Under the pieces are notes generated by a model. That model had not been told where the DNA came from and did no database searches. It was given only the letters and a program-made list of their open reading frames with translations. Source: an uncultured virus (IMG/VR IMGVR_UViG_3300042376_001667) (Duplodnaviria > Heunggongvirae > Uroviricota > Caudoviricetes). Taken from it: a stretch of DNA of 27,879 nucleotides. The stretch lies in IMG/VR virus record IMGVR_UViG_3300042376_001667; one strand, given 5' to 3'. Positions within the stretch are counted from its first letter, which is position 1. Each line of letters begins with the position of its first letter. The translations under genes and the position numbers were made by a program. Below, in pieces: positions 4,206 through 16,594 of this stretch.

Positions 4206-4520
4206 ATGCCTTACGGAATGAGAATTTGGGATGCTAGTGGCAATCTAACTCTAGACACCACAGACCGAATAACCCGGTTTGTGACAAGTATAACACCAGG
4301 TACTATCGCAGCAAATTCAACAGTCAGTTACAGTGTGCCCGGCATCGTAGACGATGGTACGTGGTTTTTGGTAGTAATGAACACATGGCGACCGGCTTCT
4401 AATAGCACTGCTGTTTTTATCGTAATGACAATTACATCTGGTTTTATAAATGCTGAAAATAAGAGTACCACGGCTTGGACAAATGGTCTTGGTACTAGAA
4501 TAGAAGTATTTAGGGGCTGA
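4206..4520 (+). CDS. Small tail-tip accessory protein
   Basis: The MPYGMRIWDASG...LD N-terminus is typical of small proteins encoded just downstream of J-like genes. RBS AAGGA upstream. Confidence 0.65.
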   Translation: MPYGMRIWDASGNLTLDTTDRITRFVTSITPGTIAANSTVSYSVPGIVDDGTWFLVVMNTWRPASNSTAVFIVMTITSGFINAENKSTTAWTNGLGTRIEVFRG

Positions 4521-4521
4521 T

Positions 4522-5157
4522 ATGTCATACGGTATTAATATTTATAACGCTGCCAATAACATTATTATTAGCCAAGACTTTACTAACTATCACGTGGTTT
4601 CAAGCGGCACACTTGCAAATGCTGCGGCATGGCCTACGATTGCTGCTAATGAGATTCTTTTTATCAGAGCAAATACAGCAGGTGCAATAGTAAGATCTAG
4701 TATTCCGATAGGCACAATTTCGGTTTCTGCTGGGCTTGTCGAATATGTTGTGGTTAGACGTACTCCAAGCCCTTCCGCTAACACGTTTGGCCTACGCGTA
4801 TATCAATCCGACGGAGTTAGCATAGCCTTTGACTCGGGGGCAGCAGCTGCAAAAATTGTATCAAGCTATACAAAAGTTGGACGGTCTGATGGGTTTTTTG
4901 CGTATTGGAATGTTACACTAAATCAACCTATTGCAGTTCCTACTGGCAGAAAACGATATATTACTGCCGAACCTTTCAGAGGCTTGACAGCAGTTTGGCC
5001 AGGATTCTTTCCTTTTCCGCCTGCTATAATTCTTGACCAAATCACTTGGACCTCTGATACGCAACAGTATATTGACCAATTTACCACGGGTGGTGGTGGT
5101 TCAGGCGCTCCAATAGACTTTCAAAGTTCAAAGATCTTTTTAACCATTGATATATAG
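4522..5157 (+). CDS. Tail-tip accessory protein
   Basis: MSYGINIYNA start and an internal FGLRVYQSDG..FDS repeat of the same motif class. Tightly packed after the previous gene. Confidence 0.6.
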   Translation: MSYGINIYNAANNIIISQDFTNYHVVSSGTLANAAAWPTIAANEILFIRANTAGAIVRSSIPIGTISVSAGLVEYVVVRRTPSPSANTFGLRVYQSDGVSIAFDSGAAAAKIVSSYTKVGRSDGFFAYWNVTLNQPIAVPTGRKRYITAEPFRGLTAVWPGFFPFPPAIILDQITWTSDTQQYIDQFTTGGGGSGAPIDFQSSKIFLTIDI

Positions 5158-5164
5158 GCCCAAA

Positions 5165-5767
5165 ATGATGAGTGTATTCGTATATCTTGACCAAAATCAA
5201 ACACCAACCGGAGTGCAGCGTTTCGAAACAATGCCCGGAGTGGACATTACAGTTCCACCTGGAGTCTTGTATTTTGAAGACGCTTCTGAGCTACCTAATG
5301 ACATGGATATCATAAACCATTGGAGAATAAAATCAGGTGTGTTAACAGACGTCGGTCCAAATCCAGGTCCTTCGTATCGTTGGGACACAAATTCTGAAAG
5401 CTGGATTCCAGACATACCAAAGGCAAAAGAAAATAAACTTCAACAATTAAAAGCTACGAGAGACCAAAAAGAATCTGGAGGCTTTGTTTGGGATGGTAGC
5501 GTATTTGATAGTGATCCATTGAGCCAATTAAGGATACAAGGTAGTGTAGCATTAGCGCAAGTTGCTTTTGCTTCCAATACGCCCTTTACAATAGAGTGGA
5601 CTTTAAAAAACAATTCTATAAGAAGTCTTTCAGGACAAGATATGATTCAAGTTGGACTCTCTTTAGCAAATCATATTATCACAATTCATCAGACTTATAG
5701 AGATTTAAAAGAACAGCTAAGTAATGCAACAACTCTGCAGGTTATAGACAACATTTTATGGCCTTAG
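5165..5767 (+). CDS. DUF4376-like tail-associated protein
   Basis: C-terminal GGFVWDGSVFDSDPLSQLRI...WTLKNN...LSGQDM...I.W pattern is typical of DUF4376 tail fibre-associated proteins. Start at 5165 or 5168 is likelier than 5147. Confidence 0.7.
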   Translation: MMSVFVYLDQNQTPTGVQRFETMPGVDITVPPGVLYFEDASELPNDMDIINHWRIKSGVLTDVGPNPGPSYRWDTNSESWIPDIPKAKENKLQQLKATRDQKESGGFVWDGSVFDSDPLSQLRIQGSVALAQVAFASNTPFTIEWTLKNNSIRSLSGQDMIQVGLSLANHIITIHQTYRDLKEQLSNATTLQVIDNILWP

Positions 5768-6213
5768 CTGTAATTGATAAAATAAAGCTTTTTGATGAGA
5801 TTGCATACTGTGTCAACATGTATGCTAGTTTGAATGACTTTACTTTTCTTCCAATCGATCGTAAGCTAGCTGTACAAAACTTAAGCTTAGCAGTGCGTCG
5901 TCAAAAGTTTATACGAGTTTTAAAACAAGACAATCAAATAGTAGCCTGGATTTATGCAGATGTTGGAAACAGTCTTCATATGAATGAAAAAGTACTACAA
6001 CAGCAATATTATTGCTCAACTTTAGCTGGAACGAAAGCCTTTAGAGCAGTCCAAATCTTACACGAAGAACTTTTAAAATATGCCAAAGAAAACAAATACG
6101 ATATAGTATTCTCTAATGGAAGTCACATGGATGAAAAATACGTCTTTACTCGTATGCTGGAAAAACTAGGCTGGCAACGCCGGGGCTACGTGGCCTACAA
6201 ACGGCCCGACTAG
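5758..6213 (+). CDS. Putative GNAT-fold acetyltransferase-like protein
   Basis: About 150 aa with a ...IVAWIYA... strand, a LLKYAKENKYDIV helix-strand and C-terminal RMLEKLGW, matching the GNAT C-terminal pattern. Confidence 0.5.
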   Translation: MALAVIDKIKLFDEIAYCVNMYASLNDFTFLPIDRKLAVQNLSLAVRRQKFIRVLKQDNQIVAWIYADVGNSLHMNEKVLQQQYYCSTLAGTKAFRAVQILHEELLKYAKENKYDIVFSNGSHMDEKYVFTRMLEKLGWQRRGYVAYKRPD

Positions 6214-6252
6214 GTACCAGACGGGTCCACCTTGCAAAAATTTTTCAGCGGT

Positions 6253-6304
6253 AGGGCCAGGGTGATGTCGTGAAAAATCGCGTCACCTTGGACCCCTTTT
6301 CTTT
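6253..6304 (+). terminator. Probable rho-independent terminator of the tail operon
   Basis: Imperfect GC-rich stem AGGGCCAGGGTGATG / CGTCACCTTGGACCCCT followed by TTTCTTT. Confidence 0.5.
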
Positions 6305-6411
6305 GCATATTTATTAGCGGAACCCGTTAGATTAACCCAAGGACGGCCCCTCTATTAAGTATCTGTATCATATTGTAGTAGATGTTATAGTACTAAAGTA
6401 TAAGGAATAGA

Positions 6412-6939
6412 ATGATACCGTTAATAATTCAGCCATTGATTGCAGGAGGTCTTAATCTCCTTGCTAACGCAGCTATGGCAAAGGGTAAAGAGTGGGTTGA
6501 AGAGAAGACTGGTATCGATATTGATAAGGCTTCTTTGTCACCTCAAGAGCTTCATAAGCTTCAACAGTTTGAAATGGATCACGAAGAAGAACTGTTGAAA
6601 ATTAAACAAGAAGATAACCGAATTGCTGCAGATCTAGAAAAAGCATATCTAGCTGACGTTCAAAATGCTAGAGGAATGCAAGTTAAAGCAATTGAGTCTG
6701 ACGATAAGTTTGTTAGACGATTTGTGTATTACTTCGCAATCTTCTGGGCAATCTGTACTGCGGCTTACATAGGCTTCATTACTTTTGGTGTAGTGCCAGA
6801 AGATAATATTCGATTTGCAGACACAATTCTCGGTTTCTTGCTTGGCACAATTCTGTCTGGAATCTTTAACTTTTTCTATGGTTCGTCTAAAGGCAGTCAA
6901 GATAAGACTCAAGCAATGCTTAAGGAGATCTCTAAATGA
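6412..6939 (+). CDS. Holin (3TM/GTA-holin-like)
   Basis: Soluble N-terminus, a D..NAR.MQ motif, two hydrophobic segments and a YGSS.GS..K C-terminal motif. Overlaps the endolysin start (ATGA). Confidence 0.75.
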   Translation: MIPLIIQPLIAGGLNLLANAAMAKGKEWVEEKTGIDIDKASLSPQELHKLQQFEMDHEEELLKIKQEDNRIAADLEKAYLADVQNARGMQVKAIESDDKFVRRFVYYFAIFWAICTAAYIGFITFGVVPEDNIRFADTILGFLLGTILSGIFNFFYGSSKGSQDKTQAMLKEISK

Positions 6940-7265
6940 TGACATTAGGTCAACATCAAGAAGCCTTTGCGAGAGATCTTGCAAAACTATTGTCAAAAGC
7001 TTTTGAGCTAGGTTATGATGCTCGCTTAGGTGAGCTACAAAGAACAGTTGATCAGCAGACTATTTATGTTAAGACAGGCAAGTCGCAAACAATGAATAGT
7101 ATGCATTTAAAGAAATGTGCAATTGACATTTTCTTTACAAGATCAGGGCAGCTTGTATACCCTGAAGAGCTTGGGAAATATTGGGAGAGCTTGAATTCTC
7201 TTAACCAAGCTGGTATGTTCTGGCGAAAATTTAAAGATGGTCCACATTACGAAAGAAGGTGTTAA
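6936..7265 (+). CDS. Endolysin, peptidase M15 family (L-Ala-D-Glu peptidase-like)
   Basis: R..Q, S.H....A.D (SMHLKKCAID) and D..H.E (DGPHYE) zinc-peptidase motifs. Directly follows the holin. Confidence 0.85.
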   Translation: MMTLGQHQEAFARDLAKLLSKAFELGYDARLGELQRTVDQQTIYVKTGKSQTMNSMHLKKCAIDIFFTRSGQLVYPEELGKYWESLNSLNQAGMFWRKFKDGPHYERRC

Positions 7266-7376
7266 ATGGCTACGAAACCAATGATCCCAATTAAGAAAGA
7301 TAATTTTAAGGCGTGCCCTGGATGCCCTAGTCCAGGTAAGTGCAAAGCTGCAGGCAAGTGTCTTAAGAGCAAGTAA
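7266..7376 (+). CDS. 36-aa basic Cys-rich protein (MATKPMIPIKKDNFKACPGCPSPGKCKAAGKCLKSK)
   Basis: ATG immediately follows the endolysin stop, with GAAGG upstream. Four Cys in CxxC-x5-C-x5-C spacing. Ends just before a terminator. Not in the ORF track. Confidence 0.65.
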   Translation: MATKPMIPIKKDNFKACPGCPSPGKCKAAGKCLKSK

Positions 7377-7380
7377 CATC

Positions 7381-7409
7381 AACCCCACTGAAAGGTGGGG
7401 TTTTATTTT
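7381..7409 (+). terminator. Rho-independent terminator
   Basis: AACCCCAC-TGAAAG-GTGGGGTT followed by TTATTTT. Confidence 0.8.
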
Positions 7410-7418
7410 GGAGTTAAG

Positions 7419-7670
7419 ATGCCATACGATCCTAGTAGAAAAAGAGATTACAAAAAAGAATATAAGCAAGACCTGAAAACTGGAAAGTCAGGTCCAGGTA
7501 GTGATCAACATGAACGCCAGAAGGCTAGACGAATGTATGATTCTATGGGTATTGATAGAGATGGTAAGCATATAGACCACAAGAAACCAATTAGGAGTGG
7601 CGGTAAGTCTGTTAAAGGTAATTTAAGATTACGTGACCCTAGCAAGAACAGCGCTGATAACGGCAAATAG
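7419..7670 (+). CDS. Small HNH endonuclease-like protein
   Basis: HIDHKKPIRSGG....NLRL....N HNH-type motif. GGAG RBS before ATG 7419. Confidence 0.75.
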   Translation: MPYDPSRKRDYKKEYKQDLKTGKSGPGSDQHERQKARRMYDSMGIDRDGKHIDHKKPIRSGGKSVKGNLRLRDPSKNSADNGK

Positions 7671-7683
7671 TTCAACGGGTGTC

Positions 7684-7719
7684 ATGCGGGAAAATCGGTA
7701 TCTTATATGATAAGCAAGG
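7684..7719 (+). promoter_or_regulatory. Repeated promoter-like motif, copy 1 (core GTATCTTATATGATAAG)
   Basis: The 17-nt core is identical at 7698, 11350 and 12575. Each copy is intergenic and preceded by TGCG and an A-run. Confidence 0.65.
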
Positions 7720-7753
7720 GCTTCCCAATAAACTGTCTTTAAAGGAGTTTAAA

Positions 7754-7981
7754 ATGATAGTAGCTGTTTCTGACGTGAGTCTTTTAACAATTGAAATTTG
7801 TGTTGAATGTAATTTCACAAGAAACCGTTTTCAATTTATGAGCGAAAAAGATTTGCCAGAAAATGCAGAATTTCCTTACAACAGTGATTTGCATAACGGA
7901 CATGAAATCGATTATGTCCGTTTTGTAAACATTGTGTGTAAGAAATGCATAGAAGCAGAAAGTGAAACTGATGAGGCTTGA
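7754..7981 (+). CDS. Hypothetical protein with two CxxC motifs (possible Zn-binding)
   Basis: AAGGAG RBS before ATG 7754. Contains CVEC and CKKC. Its 3' end overlaps the hammerhead. Confidence 0.6.
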   Translation: MIVAVSDVSLLTIEICVECNFTRNRFQFMSEKDLPENAEFPYNSDLHNGHEIDYVRFVNIVCKKCIEAESETDEA

Positions 7982-8025
7982 ATAATAGCCGAAACCTAGG
8001 CCCTTCGGGGCCGATGGTCTTTCAC
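7962..8025 (+). ncRNA. Type I hammerhead ribozyme
   Basis: Stem I GTGAAA(7962-67)/TTTCAC(8020-25). Core CTGATGA(7968-74). Stem II GGCT/AGCC. GAAA(7991-94). Stem III ACC/GGT capped by GGCCC-TTCG-GGGCC. Cleavage triplet GTC(8017-19). Confidence 0.9.
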
Positions 8026-8051
8026 ACCTTTTTCTTGATTTAGGAGAAAAC

Positions 8052-8726
8052 ATGAGCACTATCACAACTGAACAACAACAGGCAATCGCTGCAAAGCTAT
8101 CAAACATGACCTTGCGATCAGGCCTAGGCAATGAAGAATCAGCATGTTCTATTGCAGCCATAAACCTTGCTTTGACCGGTAAACTAACTGACGATATTCC
8201 GCCGTGCATGTCTGAGGTGATCGGCACATGGATCATCAAAATTCAGGATGCCATGCCTTTTGATATTAGGAACTCAGTACGCTGGAAGGAACTGCTGCCA
8301 CGAGCAGCTGGTACAGGCTGCGAAAAAGAGAGCCAGCGTCATGCAATTCTTTGCGATTGGATGTGGGGTGTTGTTCTCCCTACATTTCAGCCAATTGCCG
8401 ATAAGTATGGCTTCGGTGCTAATTGGACGCATATGACAAATGAACGAACGTCTAAGGCAGCGAACGAGGCGGCGCGACATGCCGGAGAAGTGAGAATTGA
8501 TGCTGACGAAGCTGTGTTGCATTTGCAGACACTGTACAAGGCGGGTAAAGCCGACGAAATGGCGGCGCGTAGGATGTCATACGAAGCCGGAAAAGCGATG
8601 GTAGCAGCGTTACAGGCAAGTGCAACCTGGCACGCAGAGGTGGCAGTAACAGTTGGAGTGGATGACGCAATATGGTATCGATTCGATCCATGTATGTGGC
8701 TCGCACGTCTTATTAACGTAAAATAA
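8052..8726 (+). CDS. Hypothetical phage protein, paralog 1
   Basis: AGGAG RBS. Shares ACS.AAIN.AL.G.L...IPPCMSEVIG.WII..QD.MP with 8767..9480. Confidence 0.8.
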   Translation: MSTITTEQQQAIAAKLSNMTLRSGLGNEESACSIAAINLALTGKLTDDIPPCMSEVIGTWIIKIQDAMPFDIRNSVRWKELLPRAAGTGCEKESQRHAILCDWMWGVVLPTFQPIADKYGFGANWTHMTNERTSKAANEAARHAGEVRIDADEAVLHLQTLYKAGKADEMAARRMSYEAGKAMVAALQASATWHAEVAVTVGVDDAIWYRFDPCMWLARLINVK

Positions 8727-8766
8727 CACGCACTTTCAAACGGACTTCTCAACATAGGAGAAATAG

Positions 8767-9480
8767 ATGAGCACTATCACAATTGAACAACGAGAGACCA
8801 TTGCCAAGAAACTGGCAGATATGGAACTATCTTTTGGTTTAGGCGATGAAAAATCAGCTTGTTCTGTGGCGGCGATTAATATTGCGCTCAGAGGTAAATT
8901 AAGCGCCGAGATTCCGCCGTGCATGAGCGAAGTAATCGGCCAGTGGATAATTCTCGTACAAGATGGTATGCCTCGTGACATGCGAAACTCCGAAGAATGG
9001 AAATCGCTACTTCCGCTTGCCGCAGGGACCGGCAGAGAAAAGGAAGAAGAGCGCCGAGATGTTGTTCTGGACTGGATGTGGCGTATTGTACTGCCAACTC
9101 TTCAACCGGTAGCTGACAGTAACGGATTTGGCGACATGTGGAAGTATATGATTGCAATGCGTACGTCGTCGAAAATGCCCGAAATAGGAAAGGCAAGGAA
9201 AACTGCACTGCTGCCAGAATTTGTGTTAACTCGGGTTATAGATGCAGCAAAAAGGGCTCAACAAGCCGAGAGATCATCAAGAACAGGTGAAAGCTTCTCG
9301 TATACAGCATCACAGGTAGCGAAAACGACATGGACAGTATCAGAAGCGATAGCTAGATATGCAGTGTTGTGCAAAGAAACATCGGAAGAAGCAATAGTAG
9401 CTGAGAGGGCATCAAAAAAGTCAACATGGGCTCAATTCAATCCGTGCGCTTTGCTGAAAACGCTAATTGAGGTCAAGTGA
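8767..9480 (+). CDS. Hypothetical phage protein, paralog 2
   Basis: AGGAG RBS. Tandem paralog of 8052..8726. Confidence 0.8.
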   Translation: MSTITIEQRETIAKKLADMELSFGLGDEKSACSVAAINIALRGKLSAEIPPCMSEVIGQWIILVQDGMPRDMRNSEEWKSLLPLAAGTGREKEEERRDVVLDWMWRIVLPTLQPVADSNGFGDMWKYMIAMRTSSKMPEIGKARKTALLPEFVLTRVIDAAKRAQQAERSSRTGESFSYTASQVAKTTWTVSEAIARYAVLCKETSEEAIVAERASKKSTWAQFNPCALLKTLIEVK

Positions 9481-9513
9481 TATAGCAAGCTTTAGCAGAT
9501 CAAGGTAAATCTT

Positions 9514-9780
9514 ATGAAGACAGCTAAAATGGATGTAGTTGATTTTGCCTGGCAAATAATTGATATGCAGCGCACAATTAACGAACAAAAACACGAGCTG
9601 ATCCGGCTTGCAGCAATTGAGGAAAAGTATATGAGCCTACTGGATTCGGATATTGAACACAGTCAAACTATGATGCGCAATCTTCTTGAAATATGTGTGA
9701 CGCCTGGGGTTCTTCAAGCTCTCGAGAAAAACCCTAACGATCATTTCAAAACGGTACAGCCTGATGTCACAACACCATAA
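9514..9780 (+). CDS. Hypothetical protein
   Basis: AAGGT RBS. Helical/coiled-coil-like sequence that fits the operon spacing. Confidence 0.6.
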   Translation: MKTAKMDVVDFAWQIIDMQRTINEQKHELIRLAAIEEKYMSLLDSDIEHSQTMMRNLLEICVTPGVLQALEKNPNDHFKTVQPDVTTP

Positions 9781-9792
9781 AAGGAAAATCAA

Positions 9793-9867
9793 ATGAAACT
9801 TGAAGATGCAGTTCTGGGTGCAGTTTGTATCTGCGCTCTTGTTGGGATGGCGCTAGGGTGGATTTGA
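9793..9867 (+). CDS. 24-aa hydrophobic peptide (MKLEDAVLGAVCICALVGMALGWI)
   Basis: AAGGA RBS and a single TM-like stretch. Its stop overlaps TTG 9864 of the next gene. Not in the ORF track. Confidence 0.5.
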   Translation: MKLEDAVLGAVCICALVGMALGWI

Positions 9868-10328
9868 GGAACGTCTTAGTTGCGTTTCTAATGCTTTTAG
9901 GATTTTCAGAGATTCCGCATAAGGAAGATATTCTGAAGCCTGCGCAAGAAGCTTCAATTTCAATAGATGACTTGGACTGTCTTATCAAAAATGCATACCA
10001 TGAGGCTTTTGGAGAAGGTCCTTTAGGTATGGCAGTCGTGACTCAAGTTGTGATAAATAGGGCCCAAAAGACACGTGAATCTCTCTGTGAAACAGTGTTC
10101 AAGTATAAGCAGTTTTCCTGGACACTAGGTCGAGAAAAGACTCTTTCACAAGATTCTTATGAGAGAACAAAAAGTACGGTTCTTGCAGTATACTACGGAT
10201 TTATGGAAATTCCAAGTCATCTTAAAAACGCAACTCACTTCCACACATTGCAAGTAAAGCCCTATTGGAGCAAATCTCTGAAAAGGCTAGGTGTCTTGAA
10301 AAACCATGTTTTCTATGAAGGAGTCTAA
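9858..10328 (+). CDS. SleB-like cell wall hydrolase (Hydrolase_2 family)
   Basis: CL..NAYHEAFGE...G..VV.QVVINR, QFSW, ATHFH...VKPYWS and HVFY motifs. Hydrophobic N-terminus. Start is uncertain (GTG 9858 or TTG 9864). Confidence 0.9.
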   Translation: MDLRNVLVAFLMLLGFSEIPHKEDILKPAQEASISIDDLDCLIKNAYHEAFGEGPLGMAVVTQVVINRAQKTRESLCETVFKYKQFSWTLGREKTLSQDSYERTKSTVLAVYYGFMEIPSHLKNATHFHTLQVKPYWSKSLKRLGVLKNHVFYEGV

Positions 10329-10472
10329 ATGGTAAAGTTCGGAAAATTTGCATGGCCAGTAAATATTGTGAACTATGCGCAGGAAAGCTACATGCGCAAT
10401 CCCGCGTATTACCACATGTCTTTGGAGGAAATCCTCCATAAGTTTTACAGCACTTATAAGAAAGCTGTTTAA
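10329..10472 (+). CDS. 47-aa hypothetical protein (MVKFGKFAWP...YKKAV)
   Basis: AAGGAG RBS, and the ATG directly follows the upstream stop. Not in the ORF track. Confidence 0.55.
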   Translation: MVKFGKFAWPVNIVNYAQESYMRNPAYYHMSLEEILHKFYSTYKKAV

Positions 10473-10541
10473 CCCATTTAGAAGCCATTAGAGATAGTGG
10501 CTTCAATAATGTGTTAATTTTGACACAGACTTTGAAAGGAC
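10468..10541 (+). repeat. 74-bp direct repeat, copy 1 (hairpin plus RBS)
   Basis: 10475-10541 is identical to 10954-11020 over 67 nt. Contains GAAGCCATTA-GAGA-TAGTGGCTTC and ends in AAAGGAC. Confidence 0.95.
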
Positions 10542-10547
10542 TTTGAA

Positions 10548-10946
10548 ATGAAACATTTTCCATTGAGCTTGCCGCAAGAGATCGAGCTTATTGCGCAATT
10601 GCACCTTAGTGGATCGCGGTACTTCGGAACTGCAAAACCTGCTTCTGACTGGGACTTTATTGTAGGTTCTGCGTCCAACGAAGCGATTTTAGCGTTATTT
10701 CGAAAGCACAAAGCCTACCTTATTGGCTCATATGCCATCGAGACTGGAGGCCAAGTTTGGCGTTGGGATTATGAGGCTCAACAAACCCATATCGACTTCC
10801 AGATCGTTCCAAATATAGCTTGGAAGCTCCGAGCGCAAGCTTGGATCAAAGCTATGTTGGATGAAGGGTTTTGCTTTCCAGACTCAAAAGTAAAAAGAAA
10901 TAAGATTTGGGAGGCTGCTTTTAAGGCGTCAGAAGACCACGTTTAA
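10548..10946 (+). CDS. Pol-beta superfamily nucleotidyltransferase (minimal)
   Basis: hGSRxxG....SDWDh motif (LSGSRYFGTAKPASDWDF) and a later IDF strand carrying the third acidic residue. Confidence 0.75.
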   Translation: MKHFPLSLPQEIELIAQLHLSGSRYFGTAKPASDWDFIVGSASNEAILALFRKHKAYLIGSYAIETGGQVWRWDYEAQQTHIDFQIVPNIAWKLRAQAWIKAMLDEGFCFPDSKVKRNKIWEAAFKASEDHV

Positions 10947-11020
10947 TTTAACTCATTTAGAAGCCATTAGAGATAGTGGCTTCAATAATGTGTTAATTTT
11001 GACACAGACTTTGAAAGGAC
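10947..11020 (+). repeat. 74-bp direct repeat, copy 2
   Basis: Matches 10468-10541 with one mismatch. Confidence 0.95.
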
Positions 11021-11335: not shown

Positions 11336-11379
11336 TTGCGTAAAACGTAGTATCTTATATGATAAGCAAGGTGCTTATC
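11336..11379 (+). promoter_or_regulatory. Repeated promoter-like motif, copy 2
   Basis: TTGCGT-16nt-TATGAT, with the core at 11350-11366. Followed by the GATAAGCA-AGG-TGCTTATC hairpin. Confidence 0.65.
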
Positions 11380-11868: not shown

Positions 11869-12120
11869 ATGTATAAGCCATTTGTAGTTTTGGAAAACGG
11901 TAAGCCGTGTTGCTACCGTAAGTTCAAGGTTGACAAGAGCTGGAATCGATTTCAGTTCAAGAATGAAGGTGCAGCTTTTTTGTACGCTCTAAATTGGCTT
12001 GGTGCGTATGCCCCGATAGTTGAGAAGCTTGAAGTTGGTAAACCATACTATTATGCCATGAATTCGTATGTAGTAGTCCTTGACAAACGAATAAAAGGAG
12101 CATTAAATGACTTGGTATGA
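11869..12120 (+). CDS. Hypothetical protein
   Basis: AAAGGAG RBS. Abuts the upstream stop. Confidence 0.65.
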   Translation: MYKPFVVLENGKPCCYRKFKVDKSWNRFQFKNEGAAFLYALNWLGAYAPIVEKLEVGKPYYYAMNSYVVVLDKRIKGALNDLV

Positions 12121-12262
12121 CCAAGATTTTGCAAGTGCTGCTTGGCAGGAGTTCGCGAGAATCTTTCCAAGAGAAGCCCAACAATACCGGGACTTTCCCG
12201 GTTTAGGCAAGTGGCTACGCCCAGTTATTGAAGATTTCTTTATGGCCTACGAAGGCCGATAA
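12107..12262 (+). CDS. 51-aa hypothetical protein (MTWYDQDFASAAWQEF...)
   Basis: AAAGGAG RBS in the same context as the two upstream genes. Not in the ORF track. Confidence 0.6.
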   Translation: MTWYDQDFASAAWQEFARIFPREAQQYRDFPGLGKWLRPVIEDFFMAYEGR

Positions 12263-12266
12263 GGAA

Positions 12267-12295
12267 AGACCTGAGCAGGTCTTAAAAAGGCTCAA
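12267..12295 (+). repeat. 29-bp repeat / predicted pseudoknot, copy 1
   Basis: AGACCTGAGCAGGTCTTAAAAAGGCTCAA is identical at 12516-12544. Confidence 0.9.
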
Positions 12296-12322
12296 CGGGT
12301 GTCTTTAACAGGAAAGGTCCTT

Positions 12323-12523
12323 ATGAGACTTTTATGTGAGAGGCCATTGCCCGAAGGGGCAGCGGTTCAGGACAGATTTGTCCTAAAGGGAAAGCAAGTA
12401 GGCTTTCCTGAGCTTCGGTTTGTCCTCGTGAAGAGGATTGGGCCGAGGTTAAGTGTGTCCGGAGACGTACTTGAGAAAGCCAAATTGGCTTTCTTTGAGT
12501 GGTCGAAGGAGGCCGAGACCTGA
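12323..12523 (+). CDS. Hypothetical protein
   Basis: GGAAAGG RBS before ATG 12323. The stop codon lies inside repeat copy 2. Confidence 0.55.
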   Translation: MRLLCERPLPEGAAVQDRFVLKGKQVGFPELRFVLVKRIGPRLSVSGDVLEKAKLAFFEWSKEAET

Positions 12524-12544
12524 GCAGGTCTTAAAAAGGCTCAA
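12516..12544 (+). repeat. 29-bp repeat / predicted pseudoknot, copy 2
   Basis: Identical to 12267-12295. Confidence 0.9.
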
Positions 12545-12560
12545 AAGTGTCCGCATAAAA

Positions 12561-12591
12561 ATGCGGAAAAAGCGGTATCTTATATGATAAG
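12561..12591 (+). promoter_or_regulatory. Repeated promoter-like motif, copy 3
   Basis: ATGCGGAAAAAGCG-GTATCTTATATGATAAG, with the core at 12575-12591. Confidence 0.65.
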
Positions 12592-12920
12592 GAGAAATCC
12601 CTATCAAGCCGGATGCGTAACCGGCAATTTCAATTGAAACTTAGATTCCGGAGTAATTCTCCGGCGTGTTGGTTGCTACGAAAAGCAATGCCTTCGACGG
12701 GAATCGTCGGCCCAGATCATAGAGGGGCGTTAATACTCGTGATGGCAGTTAGCACTGTCTCAATTGCGATGAGCAGCCATGCTAGTGGCCTCATGTCGGA
12801 TTCGTAACCGACACGCTTGGTAGGCTATCCCTTCTACCGCCAAGCTAATGAAATGAAGGAACCCATCTGAAATATGGTGGGACCACTTAAGTACATTATA
12901 AAACGTGTACTTAAGTGGTT
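12590..12920 (+). ncRNA. Putative structured non-coding RNA (unclassified)
   Basis: No RBS-led ORF, about 10 consecutive hairpins, and a long-range helix 12664-12682/12801-12816. Lies directly downstream of promoter-like copy 3. Confidence 0.6.
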
Positions 12921-12967
12921 AGTTGTTAAATTAACCAATCGTGTCTTCAACCAAAGGAGTTACTGAA

Positions 12968-13315: not shown

Positions 13316-13320
13316 AAACT

Positions 13321-13347
13321 GACCTAGGCATGTCCTTAAAAGGCCTA
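13321..13347 (+). repeat. Diverged pseudoknot copy 3
   Basis: GACCTAGGCATGTCCTTAAAAGGCCTA, in which TAGGC/GCCTA replaces TGAGC/GCTCA. Confidence 0.7.
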
Positions 13348-13350
13348 TTT

Positions 13351-14204: not shown

Positions 14205-14345
14205 ATGTTATTATACCAACTGTTAGGAATCTTTTTAATACTTTTTAGAATTACCCTAATAGTTGGATTTAATTTTATCGCTATTTGGTTTTTGATACAC
14301 GCAGCACCATTTTTGTTCAAGCTGCTTTTCTGGGAATTTTTATGA
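14205..14345 (+). CDS. 46-aa hydrophobic protein coupled to the RNAP gene
   Basis: AGGAG RBS. Sequence MLLYQLLGIFLILFRITLIVGFNFIAIWFLIHAAPFLFKLLFWEFL. Its stop overlaps the RNAP ATG (ATGA). Not in the ORF track. Confidence 0.55.
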   Translation: MLLYQLLGIFLILFRITLIVGFNFIAIWFLIHAAPFLFKLLFWEFL

Positions 14346-16594
14346 AAAAGAAAATTCTTGATTCTTTAAATTCAAGAATAACAACTGAGATTTCAGGTCA
14401 CAATCCCCTTAAATATTTACTTAAGCTTAAAACAGAAGATTATATTGATACACTAATTTCTATTGTATATTTATATACTAGACCAAAGAAGGGTCATAAT
14501 AAAAATTCCATTTATCTTACAGAAGTTATTTCAGCTATCGGACATGGTATTCGTAACAAGTTCAAGCTAAAGCGTGACTCAGCATTGGCTGCTAAAACTG
14601 GCGCTTTTATGCTATACACCTTTGAGCATCTCGGATATATTCAGGTTGTTCTTGGACAAGGCTCAAAAGGACATAATATATATCTTGTGCAAGTGCTTAA
14701 TGATGATGAGATTTGTAATTTGTGGAACTCACTAGACCCTTCTCAAATTGAAAAGTTACCTTCAGAAATTCCTTACGAACCGTGGACTTCTGCAAAACAT
14801 TCAACGGGTGTCTGGCTTGTTAAGACAGGCAATAAAACAGTTTTAGACAACCTTACTCCGGAAACACACCCTATTGTCTTTAGCTGTGTTAACAGAGCAC
14901 AGCAAATAGGATGGAAAATAAACAATTGTGTTTATGATCTCCACTTGTGGGCTCTACGAAATAAAACAGACGCATTCTCTGAAATTTGGGAATTGTCTAA
15001 TGCAGAAGCAAAAGCAACTAAGCTAAGAGAAGCGAAAGCTATAGGTGACATTTCACGAAGATTTTTGAACAAGGTCTTTTATCACCTTTACTATTATGAC
15101 TTTAGAGGTCGTAAATATACCGCTACTGCATATTTGCATGAGCAAGGCTCTGACCTTGCAAGAGGTCTACTGTTAAGAGCAGATTCAAAACCAATTGGAA
15201 AAGAAGGCTTCTTTTGGCTAATGGTGTCAATTGCTTCAAATTGGGCGGGTGATGCTGGCAGAGAAGATGGTGCAAAGACTGACAAAATACCACTTCAAGA
15301 ACGATATCTTTGGGCTCTAGACAACGAAGAAATTCTATTGTCATATGCCGAAAACCCTAAAGTAAATCAAGGCTGGATGAAAGCTGATAATCCTTGGCAA
15401 TTCATTGCAGCGTGCAACGAACTAATGCGATTTAGAATCTGGCAAATGAATGTGTATGAAAACCACAAAGATGTTGTAGCTGAATATGACTACCCATCAT
15501 CTCTTGAAGTATATATTGACGGGTCAAACAATGGTAGTCAGCATCTTGCAGCATTGACTAAAGATGAAATAATTGCACCGCATGTAAATCTGGTGCCATT
15601 AAACTTGCCTGGAGATCTCTACAAGTATGTCGGTGACCATGTCTGGAAACATCTTGAAGAAGAGCTTTCTTTAATGACAAATGAAGAAATTCAGGACTGT
15701 GAACGAGTCATTGATAATCTAATTTATCTTAAAAAGCAAATAAACGCTGCTGAACCTAAAAGTGATTTTAGAAAACAACTTATAGAACAGATCAAAGAAT
15801 TTAAGTCTGAAAATGATCAGCTTATTGGGATTGCTGCACCTGTATTTTGGTCTAGAATTAAAGATGCAAAACACAAAAGAAAGATTGTGAAAAGAAATAC
15901 GATGACTATCCCGTATGGCGGAACAGCCTATGGTCTAGGTCAGCAAATCATTGATGATGCTAGAAAGCATAATATTGAACTTTTGCTTTATATGGAACAT
16001 CGGTGGGGTGCATATCTCGGAAGAGAAGTGTTTAATGACTGCAAGCGTTCTTTAGAAAAGCCTATGCAACTGCTTAAGATCTTTGAAGAGGCTGGTCGAA
16101 AAGCTGAGCAAGACGACAAGTTCTTATCCTGGACTGTGCCTGTTACAAAGTTTCCTGTAGTACAAAATTATACAGAAGGCATTGTTAAAAAGATCTGGGT
16201 ACAATATGGTCCACCGCAAGGTGTCAGAAACAGCACAGGTTACTTTGACAATACACTGCAATTAGCAATATGCTTCATTGAAGATGTTAAGCCTTCAAAA
16301 GGCAAACAATCTCAAGGTGCAAGCCCTAATATTATTCACAGCCTTGACGCTGCGCATTTGTCTATGATTGTAGCTTCCTCTGACTTTCCTGTAACGACTA
16401 TTCATGATTCTTTCGGATGTCTTCTGGCAGATATGCCTAAGTTGTTTGCAGTAACTAGACAGACATTTGTTGAGCTTTATAAACAAGATCCTTTAACGTC
16501 AATCATGAAAGATATAGGAGGTAATGCAAATGAAGTAGAACTAGGAAATCTTGATTTAAACTTGGTAATTGAATCTGAATATTGTTTTTGCTAA
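14342..16594 (+). CDS. Single-subunit DNA-directed RNA polymerase (T7-like)
   Basis: DFRGRKY, motif A IDGSNNGSQH, motif B RKIVKRNTMTIPYGG, PNIIHSLDAAH and motif C TIHDSFG. Likely start ATG 14342 (750 aa). Confidence 0.95.
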   Translation: MKKKILDSLNSRITTEISGHNPLKYLLKLKTEDYIDTLISIVYLYTRPKKGHNKNSIYLTEVISAIGHGIRNKFKLKRDSALAAKTGAFMLYTFEHLGYIQVVLGQGSKGHNIYLVQVLNDDEICNLWNSLDPSQIEKLPSEIPYEPWTSAKHSTGVWLVKTGNKTVLDNLTPETHPIVFSCVNRAQQIGWKINNCVYDLHLWALRNKTDAFSEIWELSNAEAKATKLREAKAIGDISRRFLNKVFYHLYYYDFRGRKYTATAYLHEQGSDLARGLLLRADSKPIGKEGFFWLMVSIASNWAGDAGREDGAKTDKIPLQERYLWALDNEEILLSYAENPKVNQGWMKADNPWQFIAACNELMRFRIWQMNVYENHKDVVAEYDYPSSLEVYIDGSNNGSQHLAALTKDEIIAPHVNLVPLNLPGDLYKYVGDHVWKHLEEELSLMTNEEIQDCERVIDNLIYLKKQINAAEPKSDFRKQLIEQIKEFKSENDQLIGIAAPVFWSRIKDAKHKRKIVKRNTMTIPYGGTAYGLGQQIIDDARKHNIELLLYMEHRWGAYLGREVFNDCKRSLEKPMQLLKIFEEAGRKAEQDDKFLSWTVPVTKFPVVQNYTEGIVKKIWVQYGPPQGVRNSTGYFDNTLQLAICFIEDVKPSKGKQSQGASPNIIHSLDAAHLSMIVASSDFPVTTIHDSFGCLLADMPKLFAVTRQTFVELYKQDPLTSIMKDIGGNANEVELGNLDLNLVIESEYCFC

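Follow-up and report, generated by a model that had tools for sequence, protein, structure and literature searches.

A 27,879-nucleotide (nt) stretch of DNA from an uncultured virus (IMG/VR record IMGVR_UViG_3300042376_001667; hereafter the window, by which we mean the whole stretch) contains, at positions 7962-8025 of its + strand, a complete type I hammerhead motif that can be read directly from the sequence. We propose that these positions quite probably encode a functional type I hammerhead ribozyme, a member of a large class found at the ends of phage genes, which splits a polycistronic message. The parts of the element are listed below, with counts over 84 aligned members of this class or over the five distinct copies of the subfamily to which the element belongs, both of which are described further on.

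7961, + strand: unpaired A 5' of stem I; A in 80 of the 84 class members and in all 5 distinct subfamily copies
7962-7967, + strand: 5' strand of stem I, GTGAAA; 6 of 6 pairs with 8020-8025, all six of which covary in the class
7968-7974, + strand: core C3-A9, CTGATGA; the free position N7 is 7972 (T here)
7975-7978 with 7987-7990, + strand: stem II hairpin, GGCT/AGCC, with the 8-nt loop TGAATAAT at 7979-7986
7991-7993, + strand: core G12 A13 A14 (GAA), invariant across all aligned sequences
7994-8018, + strand: stem III, beginning with the pairs A7994-T8018 (A15.1-U16.1), C7995-G8017 and C7996-G8016
7997-7998 opposite 8013-8015, + strand: internal loop of stem III, TA opposite GAT
7999-8003 with 8008-8012, + strand: 5-bp GC helix of stem III, GGCCC with GGGCC, closed by the loop TTCG at 8004-8007
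8019, + strand: C17, with predicted cleavage at 8019/8020, the position being that of the hammerhead consensus (PMC3088659)
8020-8025, + strand: 3' strand of stem I, TTTCAC, with which the predicted downstream product begins
8026, + strand: unpaired A 3' of stem I; A in 82 of the 84 class members, the next position being A in 67 of 84 and C in the window

The standard core-adjacent pairs are all present, namely G7975-C7990 (10.1-11.1), A7967-T8020 (1.1-2.1) and A7994-T8018 (15.1-16.1), and the element agrees with the acceptance rules printed in PMC3088659 for the core C3-A9, G12 A13 A14, the A15.1-U16.1 pair and H17. Stems II and III are closed by loops and the 5' and 3' ends exit via stem I; as the open helix is stem I, the hammerhead is of type I. 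When the RNA of 7950-8040 is folded, the minimum free energy (MFE) and centroid structures contain the same three helices around the same three-way junction (-25.4 kcal/mol). An earlier note on this DNA had described a complete hammerhead with all core nucleotides, three stems and a UUCG-capped stem III, a description that both the sequence and the MFE fold bear out. The cut that it predicted after C8019 likewise remains the predicted site, upheld by the structure, by a covariance model from which the window was left out and by comparative data. It had further suggested that stem I might extend past a bulge (AGAAA 7957-61 with TTTCT 8031-35). This complementarity exists in the window, but it is absent from the four other distinct subfamily copies and from the wider class, in which stem I stops after 6 bp with a conserved unpaired A on each side. 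An alternative extension seen in the fold, pairing 7951-58 with 8028-35, shows no conservation and was dropped.

Statistical support for the motif

The bare pattern of CTGATGA, a gap of 6-36 nt and GAAA occurs twice in the window against an expected 0.9 and alone is not significant. A covariance model (R2) derived from 84 hammerheads of other viral contigs, none of its rows coming from the window or its relatives, scores the element at 51.4 bits with an E-value of 9.9e-12. A second model (R1; 88 rows, including the window and the copies in the related contig L123, described below), run over the whole window with filters off, gave its only real match at 7959-8028 with 53.7 bits; it found no second copy in the window, its other 14 listed matches scoring at most 10.9 bits with E-values of at least 1.5. 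The window element is a single copy, far beyond chance, and on account of its being single the release of a circular RNA between two ribozymes is not applicable to the window. The notion that we are dealing with a chance match to the consensus, devoid of function, could appeal to the frequency of the two-block pattern just given and to the lack of an Rfam match at gathering score (discussed below); we find it scarcely credible in view of the score under the leave-out model and of the copies kept in two other contigs while their flanks diverge.

A class of hammerheads at phage gene ends

The class was collected from IMG/VR viral contigs by searching for CTGATGAGGCT, a gap of 4-14 nt and AGCCGAAAC, a pattern that covers a single stem II sequence and retrieved at least 121 stretches. 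Among the matches listed, these stretches held 128 pattern matches, 115 of them distinct, to which we applied a rule for complete type I architecture: a U16.1 whose next base is not G, no fewer than 5 of the 6 pairs of stem I, and 2 or more of the 3 pairs that close stem III. As many as 110 of the 115 pass it; only five fail the combined filter despite its stem I criterion, one of which is truncated by a contig end (L023; the others are L024, L069, L070 and L079). Trimming left 109 distinct elements and 84 were aligned, the other 25 having been left out by eye, before any counting, for long insertions in stems II or III or as near-duplicates.

In the class alignment 96.2% of 1381 cells are paired, compared with 72.8% in shuffles, although the pairing percentages of stems I and II are partly built in, stem I pairing (at least 5 of 6) being a selection criterion of the class and stem II being fixed by the search pattern. 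Cells changed on both sides number 304 as against 75.9 in shuffles, none of 500 shuffles reaches the observed score, and registers slid out of place are paired at only 25.9-40.7%. Changes on both sides occur at 12 of the 16 pairs, with all six pairs of stem I and all four inner pairs of stem III covarying. This covariation bears on another explanation, namely that the GC-rich TTCG hairpin at 7999-8012 is an intrinsic terminator or a 3' stabiliser to which the hammerhead flanks are incidental. A consensus scan does list 7999-8012 as terminator-like, with the tail GATGGTCTTT. However, the T-run is short and does not begin until 7 nt past the hairpin, the T-rich tail coincides with the 3' strand of stem I and covaries with the 5' strand, the core nucleotides flanking the hairpin are invariant, and the full motif has an E-value of about 1e-11; we hold this explanation to be very improbable.

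Beyond the helices, members of the class have several features in common. H17 is C in 96 of 110 members and A in the other 14, and the outer G-C pair of stem I is marked by a 5' G in 76 of 84 and a 3' C in 74 of 84. The 5-nt loops II begin with U in all 76 cases and have A as their third base in 72. We regard these shared features of loop II, of the outer pair and of the flanking A residues as candidates for the tertiary contact between loop II and stem I that natural hammerheads need; contacts of this kind are described in PMC6155905. The window departs from the candidate features only in its longer loop II and in having C as the second base 3' of stem I.

The immediate neighbours of the element are:

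7754-7981, + strand: upstream small open reading frame (ORF), 75 aa from the ATG at 7754, in a frame open from a GTG at 7679 (7679-7981)
8042-8046, + strand: Shine-Dalgarno-like AGGAG, 22 nt past the cut
8052-8726, + strand: downstream gene, the first of two paralogs, 224 aa
8767-9480, + strand: second paralog, 237 aa

The upstream ORF ends in ...ETDEA, its last seven codons lying within the 5' half of the ribozyme and its stop TGA (7979-7981) in loop II, and the predicted cut lies 32 nt (8020-8051) ahead of the ATG at 8052. The earlier note had pointed to the stop-codon overlap, the coding of ...ETDEA by the 5' half and the 32-nt distance, and we confirm each of them from the sequence. The two paralogs are 45% identical (E-value 3e-67). 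Neither the upstream ORF nor the downstream paralog has a Pfam or PHROG family; a search for relatives of the 224-aa protein in viral contigs gave 0 loci, and the Atlas clusters nearest to it are unnamed viral proteins.

Across the class, 103 of 109 members have an ORF of 40 codons or more whose stop codon falls in the interval from 40 nt ahead of stem I to the cut (TAA 58, TGA 34, TAG 11). Counted from where stem I starts, three stop offsets recur: +3, within stem I; +7, the core TGA; and +17, in loop II, the last being that of the window. Downstream of the cut, 108 of the 109 have an ATG-headed ORF that starts within 150 nt, at a median of 26 nt. Overlap with a stop and a short gap to the next gene are the class norm and no peculiarity of the window. 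In the window, stops in all three frames occur between the start of stem I and the cut (7962-8019). The same holds for 42 of 105 distinct class members as opposed to 12.7% of mononucleotide shuffles, and stops close two frames or all three in 97 of 105 as opposed to 55%; these shuffles do not preserve the core, which alone gives a stop in one frame, so that the enrichment of three-frame stops is a lead only.

Relatives and genomic setting

The window is a segment of a T7-like podovirus, a lake phage, with all genes on the + strand. Tail, tail-fibre and lysis genes extend to about 7265, and are followed by small ORFs and by the RNA polymerase gene listed below; the window also encodes a DNA polymerase, a primase/helicase and a ribonucleotide reductase. 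Three further features are relevant to the transcript that would carry the ribozyme:

7381-7402, + strand: strong terminator-like hairpin (9 pairs, followed by a T-run) at the close of the lysis/tail gene block before it
7685-7719, + strand: first copy of a promoter- or operator-like 35-nt repeat, a candidate start of the ribozyme-bearing transcript
14285-16594, + strand: single-subunit RNA polymerase

One relative is a 62.9-kb viral contig, L123, rated 93% complete, which is 96% identical to the window over 4396-7717 and again from 10353 onwards. Between these points, window positions 7718-10352 (2.6 kb) are replaced in L123 (3324-5435) by unrelated small genes, the break falling directly after the promoter-like repeat. 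Within the replaced 2.6 kb the hammerhead is the only matching sequence: blastn finds 3 copies in L123 at 85-96% identity, each sitting between small ORFs, and the whole contig holds exactly these three. Two of the small ORFs that they bound are paralogs. A more distant relative, L186/L187, which is 70% identical to the window over 6307-7710, has one copy at the corresponding place. The window, the three copies in L123 and the one in L186/L187 make up the five distinct subfamily copies.

In all five copies the 13 conserved core nucleotides are unchanged, and N7 alone varies in the core, being T in the window, A in the three L123 copies and C in L186/L187. Loop II differs in both sequence and length (8 or 5 nt) and the flanks diverge. 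In one L123 copy stem II has changed from GGCT/AGCC to GACC/GGTC, that is, by two compensatory pairs, and in the same copy a C to T change in stem III turns a C-G pair into a G-U wobble. This pattern of variation is expected of an RNA kept for its hammerhead fold. It also bears on a further alternative, in which the element acts mainly at the level of DNA, as a short conserved linker for the homologous recombination of early-gene cassettes, with ribozyme activity being secondary or lost. That the hammerhead is the sole match across the replaced segment, and that three near-identical copies bound small ORFs in L123, two of them paralogs, agree with such a role, as does weakly the ending of contigs of metagenome run X4 near the repeat and the hammerhead, contig ends proving nothing. 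A pure linker, however, would not restrict core changes to N7 or compensate its stems, and the wider class keeps the structure while the stem sequences vary freely, which argues that it is the RNA structure that is under selection. We accordingly judge a mainly DNA-level role improbable, while noting that RNA and DNA roles can coexist.

As an observation in its own right, the segment 7718-10352, compared with L123 3324-5435, is a hypervariable early-gene region, with entirely different small genes in phages that are otherwise 96% identical. Separately, the stem III module of the window, CCTAGG...TTCG...CCGATGG at 7995-8017 with its TA opposite GAT, recurs in hammerheads of type II, where the inner helix is compensatory (GGGGC/GCCCC). 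Its carriers are three other viral contigs and three contigs of metagenome-assembled genomes (MAGs; Limnocylindrus, Acidobacteriota and Alphaproteobacteria), at loci L185 (about 2024-2052), L188, L190 and L191-L193. The retention of the internal loop across two topologies suggests that it may have a role of its own; presumably it resembles a motif of the tetraloop-receptor or UA-handle type.

With regard to transcription, the 35-nt repeat occurs in three copies, 7685-7719, 11337-11371 and 12562-12596, each of which precedes the RNA polymerase gene. Within the repeat some 32 nt never vary, L123 and L187 included, in contrast to its differing flanks, and the repeat holds a short palindrome over a -10-like TATGAT; we regard the copies as candidate early promoters or operators. 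Positions 7663-7683, 12283-12303 and 14792-14812 were grouped with the repeat copies. The hammerhead lies about 245-340 nt downstream of the first copy, and in three phages (the window, L123 and L187) the order is the same: repeat, ribosome site, short first ORF, hammerhead, ribosome site, next gene. The first ORFs, of 75, 91 and 40 aa respectively, are without detected similarity. This conserved order fits the idea that the ribozyme processes the first transcript of the region, which the repeat, the terminator-like hairpin and the RNA polymerase gene also make plausible.

Two other repeats were seen in the window. A 74-nt direct repeat (10468-10541 and 10947-11020, 99% identical) flanks the ORF 10548-10946, which has a weak sub-threshold nucleotidyltransferase match; the arrangement is also present in L123, and the repeat may represent a regulatory region that was duplicated or else the border of a cassette. 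A hairpin-containing repeat of 29 nt occurs at 12267-12295, 12516-12544 and 13320-13348 (two of the copies being identical and the third at 69%) in some 800 nt (12120-12941) that are without ORFs of at least 80 aa, and could mark signals of RNA processing or termination, or a non-coding region near a genome end.

Among 58 loci encoding relatives of the gene at 7395-7670, a simple regular expression of the form CTGATGA...GAAA matched three times, in coding sequence unrelated to the element. With A as their N7, the L123 copies escaped it and were found by blastn and the covariance model. GenBank phages gave no DNA match to 7400-8800. The nearest record, a 16-kb fragment (G001), touches the region by 31 bases and contains no hammerhead. 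DNA contigs from four lake runs show no variant letters, with a fragmentary cover whose uncovered parts carry no weight.

Proposed role and known counterparts

Taking together the fold and the setting of the element, we posit the following course of events. The element would be transcribed within a polycistronic RNA of the small-ORF region between the lysis and RNA polymerase genes; stems I-III would form, and the RNA would cut itself after C8019. With the stop codon in loop II, the upstream mRNA would retain its complete ORF, and its 3' end would be a compact stem II/III fold bearing a 2',3'-cyclic phosphate. The downstream product would begin with a 5'-OH and a fixed 32-nt leader containing the ribosome-binding site of the first paralog. 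Cleavage in the cell, the start of the transcript at the repeat at 7685 and an uncoupled fate and translation of the neighbouring cistrons may all be envisaged on this basis.

Several considerations weigh against this proposal, in addition to the partly built-in pairing of stems I and II. The predicted fold exceeds shuffles in stability by a modest margin only (z -1.95), 9 of 200 shuffles being equally stable. Loop II is 5 nt long in 76 of the 84 aligned class members and 8 nt in the window, and the C at the second position after stem I is shared with only 4 of 84; with both departures, a tertiary contact that made cleavage faster at cellular Mg2+ could, if present, be weaker. Ribosomes terminating at 7979-7981 have to open the 5' half of the ribozyme and could delay its folding. 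The covariance model found no hammerhead in 58 sources besides L123 (57 contigs with relatives of the gene at 7395-7670, with at most 3 kb of flank each, and locus L001), so that the element is dispensable in the wider group. The sequence was found solely in lake-water DNA runs, no RNA run being listed. Lastly, the earlier note had named an Infernal search with Rfam hammerhead models as a check, and Rfam 15 yields 0 matches in the window at gathering score, the best partial matches in permissive mode being Hammerhead_HH9 (18.3 bits against a cutoff of 52) and RAGATH-1-hammerhead (16.6 bits against 56.3). Other weak overlapping Rfam matches, among them PhotoRC-I (17.5 bits, cutoff 45), XIST A repeat and suhB, depend on the TTCG hairpin and were taken as chance.

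The gathering cutoff is a curation threshold and not a defining property of a ribozyme. At that score Rfam 15 likewise reports no hammerhead in 20 of 20 other motif-carrying loci (19 class loci of the IMG/VR set L002-L122, and L123), so that the miss in the window reflects the models rather than the element. This suggests a gap in the Rfam coverage of a large viral hammerhead class, which routine annotation will consequently overlook.

An active hammerhead need not protect the downstream mRNA. The earlier note had inferred that the 5'-OH end would shield this mRNA from decay; any such protection would probably depend on the host, and an alternative view is that the main effect of cleavage is to down-tune or time expression, the 5'-OH product falling prey to a 5'-3' exonuclease where the host has RNase J, or else to stabilise the upstream product through its structured end and cyclic phosphate. 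The 5'-OH product of the glmS ribozyme is indeed described as a substrate of RNase J1 that is rapidly degraded in Bacillus subtilis (PMC3328962). Reviews call the role of bacterial and phage hammerheads unresolved and that of the thousands in phage genomes still open (PMC6155905, PMC6765202). Yet in 108 of 109 class members the cut falls shortly before a start codon and leaves the ribosome site intact, which fits the release of a translatable mRNA better than destruction, and the hammerhead-derived insulator RiboJ gives higher transcript and protein levels in E. coli (PMC6206723). We therefore consider it unlikely that down-tuning or upstream stabilisation is the principal effect, and retain the splitting of the message into separately expressed cistrons as the preferred role. 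The three related phages offer a natural comparison, with the same ribozyme after three different first genes, the same promoter-like repeat and N7 as U, A or C, and the locus could serve as a test case of whether such ribozymes insulate and stabilise cistrons.

More tentatively, and with considerable doubt, we suggest that in this lake-phage group the hammerhead might be a plug-and-play boundary for exchangeable early-gene cassettes at the level of both RNA and DNA. On the RNA side it would close the upstream frame, cut, and give the next gene a fixed leader; on the DNA side its 64 conserved nt would provide homology for the swapping of cassettes. If this were true, expression would be independent of whichever upstream gene had been recombined in, and the hammerhead would replace the host RNase III sites used by T7. 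In T7, host RNase III cuts the early RNA between its cistrons, giving defined mRNAs with structured 3' ends. The outline is alike, in that a polycistronic early RNA of a T7-like phage would be cut between cistrons; however, the T7 cut is made by a host protein enzyme and leaves 5'-phosphate and 3'-OH ends, whereas the window RNA is predicted to cut itself and to leave a 5'-OH and a 2',3'-cyclic phosphate, and the two do not belong to the same group.

A similar juxtaposition can be made with RiboJ (PMC6206723), which as described is a self-cleaving ribozyme placed just upstream of a ribosome-binding site and supplies a fixed leader whatever lies upstream; RiboJ is engineered and has an added hairpin, whereas the predicted ribozyme of the window is of natural origin and takes in the end of the upstream ORF, and these two are likewise not of one group. 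The HHphage of haloviruses HF1/HF2 lies 13 nt before an early gene, and the mapped 5' end of the major early transcript coincides with its cut, lying no more than three nucleotides from where it cleaves (PMC3088659). It is a variant in core and structure that needs high Mg2+ and comes from an archaeal virus, in contrast to the consensus core of the lake phage. Closest of all are the phage type I hammerheads of Perreault et al. 2011 (PMC3088659), where clustered phage and prophage copies flank single genes and cleave during in vitro transcription, one set also cleaving in E. coli, with the proposed role of cutting long phage transcripts into single-gene mRNAs. The window element shares with them the catalytic core, the three-helix junction with its open stem I, the siting between small phage genes and the proposed role, and the occurrence of several copies flanking single genes is matched in L123. 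Nothing categorical separates the two, the window subfamily being set apart by its long stem III, conserved internal loop and TTCG cap, and the window element is an ordinary member of this already described phage hammerhead family.

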